The notes beneath the pieces were generated by a model that was not told where the DNA came from, did not search any database, and saw nothing but the letters and a program-made list of their open reading frames with translations. A program made the position numbers and the translations under genes. Below, in pieces: positions 3,314 to 4,489 of a stretch of 42,424 nucleotides of DNA (positions within the stretch are counted from its first letter, which is position 1; every line of letters begins with the position of its first letter). The stretch covers positions 1-42,424 of IMG/VR virus record IMGVR_UViG_2563366953_000006; one strand, 5' to 3'. Source of the stretch: a virus. Lineage: Duplodnaviria; Heunggongvirae; Uroviricota; Caudoviricetes.

Positions 3314-3715
3314 AATTCCTCCAAGGGGTCTAATGGGTGAAACTCTATCACTCATTCAACCCAGAAGGAAATGTTTTATCTGGATATTTAAACAGTGACT
3401 ACAACGTAATCTAGCACTGGTGATGCTTTGTTAGGCATAGAGAATCATTCTATATACGACTAATGACAGAAAAACAGCAGACAAGTAGTTTGTTCATAAA
3501 TTAACGCATACTACGTGCCTACGGTTTTCGAGACCGGTCCAATCATCAAACGAAACATAAAATTAGCTCACATTATGAGGAAAGGTATCTTTTTGCGCTA
3601 TGTAAATTCAAAGGGTTAGCCTCATTTTCCCGGTGGCTTTCTCAACACTACTAGTTGTGAGCCCTTGCAATGTTCATTAATATGCGTCTCACAAATAATT
3701 CACAGATATTGCAAA

Positions 3716-4489
3716 ATGGATATTACTGAGTTTCCTTCTGGAGTAATTGAACACCTTGGCTGGTATGTATACCGATTGATTGATCCTAGGGACGGAAGCA
3801 CCTTCTATGTAGGGAAAGGCAAAGGTAACCGCGTATTTGCCCATATGCGCGGTGAAGTGGCAGCGACTGATGATGACGAGTTACTGAGCAACAAGCTAAA
3901 GCAAATTAGAGAAATAAGGTTAGCAGGACTTGAAGTTATCCATGTCATCCATCGACACGGAATGACTGATGAAAAGACGGCGTACGAAGTTGAAGCTGCA
4001 CTTATTGATGCCTACCCTGGGTTAACGAATATCATGAATGGTGCTGGCAGCAATGAATTCGGCGCCGCGCATGTCAAAGAGTTGATAGCAACATATCAAC
4101 CCGAAACCATAACATTTCATCATAAAGCATTAATGATTTCCGTTAACAGAAGTGCAAAGGATTCAGAGCTTTATGATGCGGTTCGATTTAGCTGGCGCAT
4201 TAATGTCTCTCGCGCCAGCCAAGCAGAAGTCATTCTTGCTACTGTAAGGGGAATCGTTCGAGGGGTTTTCATTGCTGATAAATGGCTCAAATCAACACGT
4301 GAAAATTTCCCTACGATGAAATACTGGGACGAGGATCCTGACTTTGAGGCAACACAAAGTTCTCGCTATGGTTTTGAAGGCCGAGAAGCCCCACCTGAAA
4401 TAGCAAATCTTTATCTTGGAAAAAAAATACCAGATGAATTAAGAAAAAAAGGAGCTATGTCCCCGGTCCGTTACTCACCTAATTTTTGA
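3716..4489 (+). CDS. GIY-YIG nuclease-domain protein with an uncharacterised ~170-aa C-terminal domain
   Basis: N-terminus [29 protein letters not shown] matches the GIY-(10-11)-YIG...R...H signature; the rest is unrecognised. Start (MDITEF at 3716, versus track start 3665) is uncertain because neither has a clear RBS. Confidence 0.6.

Follow-up and report, generated by a model that had tools for sequence, protein, structure and literature searches.

Judged by its sequence, one of the cargo genes in the stretch of DNA analysed here (42,424 nucleotides, hereafter the window) is a near-exact copy of the gene for CMoRE (alias PD-T4-3), a bacterial enzyme that has already been crystallised and tested. 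The window is essentially one prophage. Over its 257 residues the predicted protein is identical to the CMoRE of E. coli O157:H7 (PDB 9U75/9U8D) at 253 positions (98.4%), and it shares 85.2% identity with the orthologue from APEC O1 (9U7U/9U7Z). We estimate at roughly 95% the probability that the window copy is an active CMoRE working by the mechanism of the characterised enzyme, a reading for which sequence identity, residue conservation, gene context and distribution were determined here, and in which activity, specificity, oligomeric state and expression are assumed or inferred. Because protein, structure and mechanism have all been published and the allele is so nearly identical to the crystallised one, the observation is real but not new. 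Coordinates of the gene, its parts and other features of the prophage are collected in Table 1.

Table 1. Features of the CMoRE locus and of the surrounding prophage, in window coordinates.
Feature	Coordinates	Strand	Evidence
EcoRII restriction endonuclease, cognate partner of the methylase	631..1845	+	PF09217 EcoRII-N and PF09019 EcoRII-C; PADLOC REase_II, E 1.9e-234
EcoRII/Dcm-type C5 cytosine methyltransferase with N-terminal repressor domain; separate module	1880..3355	-	PF00145 and PF18284; NF007772, 927 bits; PADLOC MTase_II
19-nt relic of tRNA-Ser anticodon arm (att core) at the EcoRII / CMoRE-pinE joint	3522..3540	.	Three-configuration alignment
Upstream region native to the CMoRE module, presumed promoter-bearing	3541..3715	+	Common to the O157:H7 locus
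17-codon upstream extension from TTG, probably untranslated	3665..3715	+	Profiles, RefSeq, crystallised proteins
CMoRE / PD-T4-3 coding sequence, 257 aa and stop	3716..4489	+	PADLOC, PHROG 5356, PDB identity
N-terminal GIY-YIG part	3716..4060	+	PF22945 at residues 28-110, residue check
Autoinhibitory lid-loop acidic run D52-D53-D54-E55	3869..3880	+	Residue check
C-terminal modification-sensing domain, about residues 125-257, including Y127	4088..4486	+	No Pfam match; O157 structure
Hairpin between convergent CMoRE and pinE	4500..4555	.	RNAfold, -20.9 kcal/mol for 4490-4560
pinE-type serine invertase of e14-like prophage	4547..5137	-	92% DNA identity to K-12 pinE
ORF on the opposite strand, 313 aa, hypothetical in R12	27193-28134	+	No PADLOC match; no Pfam match above threshold
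ORF on the opposite strand, 153 aa, hypothetical in R12	28144-28605	+	No PADLOC match; weak DUF4064, sub-threshold
Phage N-6-adenine methyltransferase	31547-32233	-	R12 record annotation
YfdQ (DUF2303) and YfdR-like HD 5'-deoxynucleotidase gene pair	37180-38669	+	As in the K-12 CPS-53 prophage
ORF with TTG start, 259 aa, hypothetical in R12 (WP_001407079.1)	40675-41454	+	No Pfam or PADLOC match

The open reading frame spans 3665-4489 on the + strand without interruption, as had been predicted from the sequence alone, and counts 274 amino acids from its TTG. The true start, however, is almost certainly the ATG at 3716, because the PADLOC and PHROG profiles, the RefSeq coding-sequence models and the crystallised proteins all begin there. 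The alignments to both profiles start at residue 1 of the ATG-3716 version, near-identical genomes carry a 774-nt coding sequence in their RefSeq annotation, and the PDB sequences have the N-terminus MDITEF or MDINEF, preceded by a 5-residue tag. Residues are numbered from this ATG throughout. A promoter scan of 3300-4700 revealed no consensus sigma-70 promoter upstream of the gene on the + strand, and a strict terminator scan of the same interval revealed no canonical terminator. The hairpin between CMoRE and pinE, which has no T-run and was for that reason missed by the strict scan, is probably a bidirectional terminator.

Both family profiles cover the protein from end to end. The PADLOC profile PD-T4-3 (PDLC04031) matched residues 1-256 over profile positions 1-255 of 256 (E 2.4e-140), and PHROG 5356 matched residues 1-257 over positions 1-255 of 255 (E 2e-143), which places the protein in the CMoRE / PD-T4-3 family with type I architecture. 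A sequence search of the PDB identified two proteins, those of O157:H7 (E 3.7e-172) and APEC O1 (E 1.1e-150), each of which aligns with the window protein gap-free over its entire length. NCBIfam has no family for the protein. All of the Pfam matches are to GIY-YIG families and lie in the N-terminal half. The curated model PF22945 (LEM-3_GIY-YIG) matched residues 28-110 above threshold (E 2.1e-14; 54.2 bits, cutoff 27), assigning the protein to the GIY-YIG superfamily, and the classic PF01541 model remained below threshold (13.9 vs 22.6 bits). A phmmer search of the PDB with the N-terminal domain, at E up to 10, returned only the CMoRE structures and noise, and no UvrC, I-TevI or Eco29kI. The GIY-YIG signature on which the original prediction was based is present (V18-Y19-R20, Y31-V32-G33-K34-G35-K36-G37-N38-R39 and H43), and the fold is confirmed by PF22945. 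The same prediction described the C-terminal domain as unrecognised. Residues from about 111 to 257 are indeed without any Pfam match, but the domain corresponds to the solved 5hmC/5ghmC-sensing domain of CMoRE, a fold reported to have no detectable homologues (PMC12923530).

Every published functional residue is conserved in this copy: Y17, Y19, Y31, R80, V92, L96, Y127 and the acidic lid D52-E55; R39 is also present. The GIYxY-YIG motif retains its three tyrosines (G15-W16-Y17-V18-Y19-R20, F30-Y31-V32-G33), and the tetramer-interface residues V92 and L96 and the 5hmC-contacting Y127 are all found. The roles of Y17/Y19/Y31, R80 and V92/L96 come from mutagenesis (PMC12923530). [quoted passage not shown] Four consecutive acidic residues also occur in the window protein, where the run reads DDDE, as in APEC O1; in O157 it is DDDD.

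Four differences from O157 were identified in all: T51 (A in O157), E55 (D), Q169 (K) and N197 (H). APEC O1 agrees with the window protein at 55 and 197, and Q169 matches neither crystallised protein. The C-terminal domain thus has the sequence of the O157 structure except at Q169 and N197. Within the N-terminal domain, the window protein departs from the mutagenised O157 enzyme only at residues 51 and 55, and the published catalytic Arg and Glu are therefore retained. Their retention was judged through this identity; loss of the catalytic residues, which would have argued against a GIY-YIG nuclease, was not found. The text of PMC12923530 describes the catalytic Arg and Glu without residue numbers. 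Their assignment to R39 and E91/E93 is our own, and R39 and H43 would have the roles that the canonical GIY-YIG layout gives to these positions.

PD-T4-3 was described as the GIY-YIG system among the 21 defence systems of the screen by Vassallo et al. 2022 (PMC9519451), with ECOR68 as its source strain according to PMC12923530, and was renamed CMoRE by Liu et al. (Nat Commun 2026; PMC12923530). In the latter study, carriage of the CMoRE gene of O157, APEC O1 or Klebsiella cut T2, T4 and T6 plating by about five logs, and not through abortive infection; the O157 gene under its native promoter gave about 5-log protection (PMC12923530). [quoted passage not shown] Cleavage follows the pattern CN11/N9G without strict sequence specificity, requires two modified sites, and produces double-strand breaks with 2-nt 3' overhangs (PMC12923530).

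If the window protein behaves like this enzyme, it would assemble as a tetramer, a dimer of dimers, whose C-terminal domains would read flipped-out 5-hydroxymethylcytosine or glucosyl-5hmC at two required sites and whose N-terminal GIY-YIG domains would cut both strands at the fixed CN11/N9G distance, leaving 2-nt 3' overhangs. The acidic loop D52-E55, lying over the active site, would bar ordinary and 5mC host DNA and so prevent self-cutting. Incoming T-even-type phage DNA would be destroyed directly and non-abortively, and the prophage would in this way protect its host. Cleavage restricted to 5hmC and 5ghmC DNA, together with protection against T-even phages, is what we expect of the window allele from its near-identity to the O157 enzyme. 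Among the functions originally proposed, a stand-alone defence nuclease is thus borne out by the identity of the protein as CMoRE / PD-T4-3. A modified-base nicking enzyme had been proposed as well; the target is indeed a modified base, but beside modified cytosines the enzyme cuts both strands, with 2-nt 3' overhangs, and does not nick (PMC12923530).

The same family and chemistry might serve a wider range of targets, including other hypermodified DNA such as that bearing the Mu mom carbamoylmethyl-adenine. This would be compatible with an active CMoRE in the window, although we consider it unlikely. PD-T4-3Capno, a Capnocytophaga homologue 48% identical to PD-T4-3, is a modification-dependent nuclease that degraded Mu as well as T4 DNA in vitro (PMC12366544), and in E. 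coli NILS69 and K-12 the protective range extends past Tequatrovirus to a Dhakavirus (10.1101/2024.12.20.629700). The Mu result, however, was obtained with a distant homologue, and among the phage DNAs tested by Liu et al. the 98.4%-identical enzyme was active on T-even genomic DNA alone, and not on C or 5mC DNA (PMC12923530).

Our failure to find a consensus promoter upstream of the gene on the + strand might suggest that this strain carries only an inactive or silenced remnant, and in NILS69 one phage did escape the native-level system, though not the overexpressed one (10.1101/2024.12.20.629700). The intact reading frame and the conservation of all functional residues argue against a remnant, as does the upstream region, which is the same as that of O157, where the native promoter gave the protection described above. 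Moreover, deletion of the native-level gene from NILS69 sensitised that host to Tevenvirinae phages (10.1101/2024.12.20.629700). A remnant is thus very improbable, and an active CMoRE remains the preferred reading.

The gene map confirms the context first described for the gene, which is divergent from the methyltransferase and lies between the restriction-modification (R-M) pair and the invertase at the end of the prophage; the gene is convergent with the Pin-type invertase. The prophage begins directly after ssrA (tmRNA, tag ANDENYALAA; 40-402) and its tyrosine integrase lies at 39,461-40,633. The 3' end of ssrA and about 140 nt beyond it (about 367-545) are repeated at about 41,484-41,655, over about 175 nt and at about 92% identity. 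The length of this repeat, well in excess of the ssrA 3' end by itself, may be a trace of earlier tandem integrations at ssrA. ETEC1717 carries a P4-like primase element on the far side of the EcoRII pair, with a copy of the ssrA-end repeat downstream of that element. A prophage of E. coli R12, which shows 99.6% identity to the window over 403-5137, is also located directly after ssrA and combines lambdoid early genes with an HK97-type head and a Mu-like contractile tail.

Across the tail-fibre genes, the invertase and ymfQ, the window is homologous, at 90-97% DNA identity, to the cryptic prophage e14 of K-12, where the order is ymfQ, stfP, tfaP, tfaE, stfE, pinE, mcrA and the prophage end. 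Homology between the window and K-12 ends exactly at the pinE stop codon (4546), so that CMoRE occupies the same slot as K-12 mcrA. McrA, which carries an HNH domain and is matched by the PADLOC model mREase_IV, is another type IV enzyme. The cargo has a GC content of 42-45% vs 50-56% for the phage backbone. On the other side of pinE, the tail-fibre segment (about 5160-7095) aligns by BLAST to K-12 e14 and ETEC1717 in pieces of opposite orientation. Such inversion or rearrangement is consistent with an active Pin-invertible host-range segment.

The location of the gene bears on the suggestion, also made originally, that it encodes a homing-type endonuclease, that is, a mobile I-TevI-type GIY-YIG enzyme promoting its own spread. 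The gene is patchily distributed in prophages, and its N-terminal, catalytic part weakly matches PHROG 314, 'homing endonuclease' (E 0.0021). However, Pfam searches found no NUMOD, IENR1 or HTH DNA-binding module of the I-TevI kind, and the C-terminal domain is instead the solved modified-base sensor. The gene is always found in the att-proximal cargo slot beside pinE and not inside a conserved target gene, and the characterised enzyme cleaves without strict sequence specificity. The homing reading can be set aside with near certainty in favour of a defence nuclease of the CMoRE family.

The boundary between the gene and its divergent neighbours is marked by the tRNA-Ser relic. An alignment of R-M-only, CMoRE-only and combined configurations showed that the relic, CGGTTTTCGAGACCG(GTCC), CGGTTTTCGAGACCGGTCC, is the only sequence common to all three, and therefore that the 'divergent' intergenic region consists of two module ends rather than a shared regulatory region. 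The 19-nt relic is unique within the window. BLAST comparison with E. coli genomes showed that in O157 the att core runs on into a 3' fragment of a tRNA-Ser gene; ARAGORN detected no tRNA at the O157 locus because only the 3' fragment is present there. These observations suggest that an old att core was the point at which the cargo modules became joined. The prophage that contains the tRNA-Ser relic has ssrA as its own integration site. A search for repeats around the gene returned only short ones at the level of chance. Inspection by eye showed a direct repeat of 14/15 nt with one indel (3513-3527, 4534-4547) that flanks the gene, which we judged to be a chance match (about 0.4 expected per 1.4 kb in all-pairs comparison); the GACCGG similarity adjoining this repeat falls inside the conserved pinE coding sequence.

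The dcm-vsr genes are normally located elsewhere on the E. coli chromosome, and no vsr is annotated in the near-identical R12 prophage. Given the divergent position of the nuclease gene beside a Dcm-type methylase, its product might be a Vsr-like or otherwise methylase-associated repair or nicking enzyme acting on T:G mismatches that arise from deaminated EcoRII-methylated cytosines, a link that the original prediction had raised. Such a link to the neighbouring methylase is not supported. Of 5426 complete E. coli genomes, about 807 (about 15%) contain at least 80% of the segment 3400-4600, with the gene intact. About 566 of these gene-bearing genomes, or about 70%, are without an adjacent EcoRII pair, and the pair is in turn found in genomes that lack the gene. 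Only about 241 of the 5426 have the whole block 403-5137, part of which is matched in roughly 4700 E. coli genomes. The product has no Vsr domain (no match to PF03852 in Pfam at E up to 1), and the tRNA-Ser relic divides the shared intergenic region into two modules. In addition, the 98.4%-identical enzyme neither binds nor cuts unmodified or 5mC DNA (PMC12923530), which explains how the gene can coexist with a Dcm-type methylase. A Vsr-like role has, in our judgement, next to no likelihood. Neither does the gene belong to an R-M system of the Eco29kI type II kind, as the methylase is paired with the EcoRII endonuclease and is dispensable for carriage of the gene. The adjacent EcoRII pair is a module of its own, directed against unmodified CCWGG DNA, and together EcoRII and CMoRE would cover both unmodified and cytosine-hypermodified phages.

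Across the genomes examined, the pinE slot holds one of two unrelated type IV enzymes (McrA and CMoRE), a type II R-M system, or uncharacterised genes. In K-12 it is occupied by mcrA and in O157 by CMoRE alone. The slot of NWU_4 encodes three hypothetical proteins (343, 114 and 70 aa), that of F9792 a 279-aa hypothetical protein and a 4-fold beta flower protein, and that of UTAK-6 a hypothetical protein of 215 aa. None of the uncharacterised slot genes from these three genomes matched PADLOC, and the 4-fold beta flower protein of F9792 gave the sole Pfam match among them. Examples of the unknown occupants are WP_021530618.1 (NWU_4), WP_149009929.1 (F9792) and WP_001288817.1 (UTAK-6). Relics of tRNA att cores seem to mark the joints between slot modules. 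We offer tentatively, and at less than even odds, the view that the e14-like pinE-att slot is a defence hotspot, that its uncharacterised occupants are new defence genes, and that the combination of EcoRII with CMoRE represents a selected layering against unmodified and hmC-modified phages.

Several other genes of the prophage may be mentioned. The two opposite-strand ORFs at 27193-28605 occupy the classic lambdoid moron site, with the Q antiterminator on one side and the holin on the other, and the shorter of them may encode a membrane protein. The 259-aa ORF, between the integrase and attR, occupies a second att-proximal cargo position. The YfdQ/YfdR-like pair is located in the early region near the integrase. 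With its N-6-adenine methyltransferase in addition to M.EcoRII, the element encodes two DNA methyltransferases.

With this identification, the name of type IV, 5hmC/5ghmC-dependent restriction endonuclease can be given to a protein that RefSeq still labels 'hypothetical' or 'LEM-3-like GIY-YIG domain-containing protein'. The name predicts T-even resistance in lysogens, which bears on phage therapy and on the prediction of host range. The gene itself offers nothing mechanistically new; the forward value lies in the variable cargo slot adjacent to pinE as a place to hunt for defence genes.

Compared with known systems, the window protein shares with the CMoRE of O157:H7 (9U75, 9U8D) and of APEC O1 (9U7U, 9U7Z) its length of 257 aa, its two-domain architecture, the GIYxY-YIG motif, the acidic lid, the interface residues and Y127. 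As in O157, the gene is found beside pinE in an e14-like prophage, but the window differs from O157 in having an EcoRII R-M module on the att side of CMoRE and in the integration of its prophage at ssrA rather than tRNA-Ser. McrA (EcoKMcrA) of the K-12 e14 prophage is encoded in the equivalent cargo position, with pinE on one side and the prophage end on the other, but has no sequence relationship to CMoRE; it has a C-terminal HNH nuclease and an N-terminal sensor, and targets 5mC in C5mCGG (PMC12707154). The N-terminal GIY-YIG domain of UvrC (PDB 1YCZ) lacks both the extra tyrosine (Y17) and the 15-residue acidic insert, and UvrC acts in nucleotide excision repair and not in restriction. The GIY-YIG type II enzymes Eco29kI and Hpy188I likewise use a GIY-YIG catalytic core for restriction, but they cut specific unmodified sequences and need a cognate methylase, whereas CMoRE, with no methylase partner, cuts modified DNA only.
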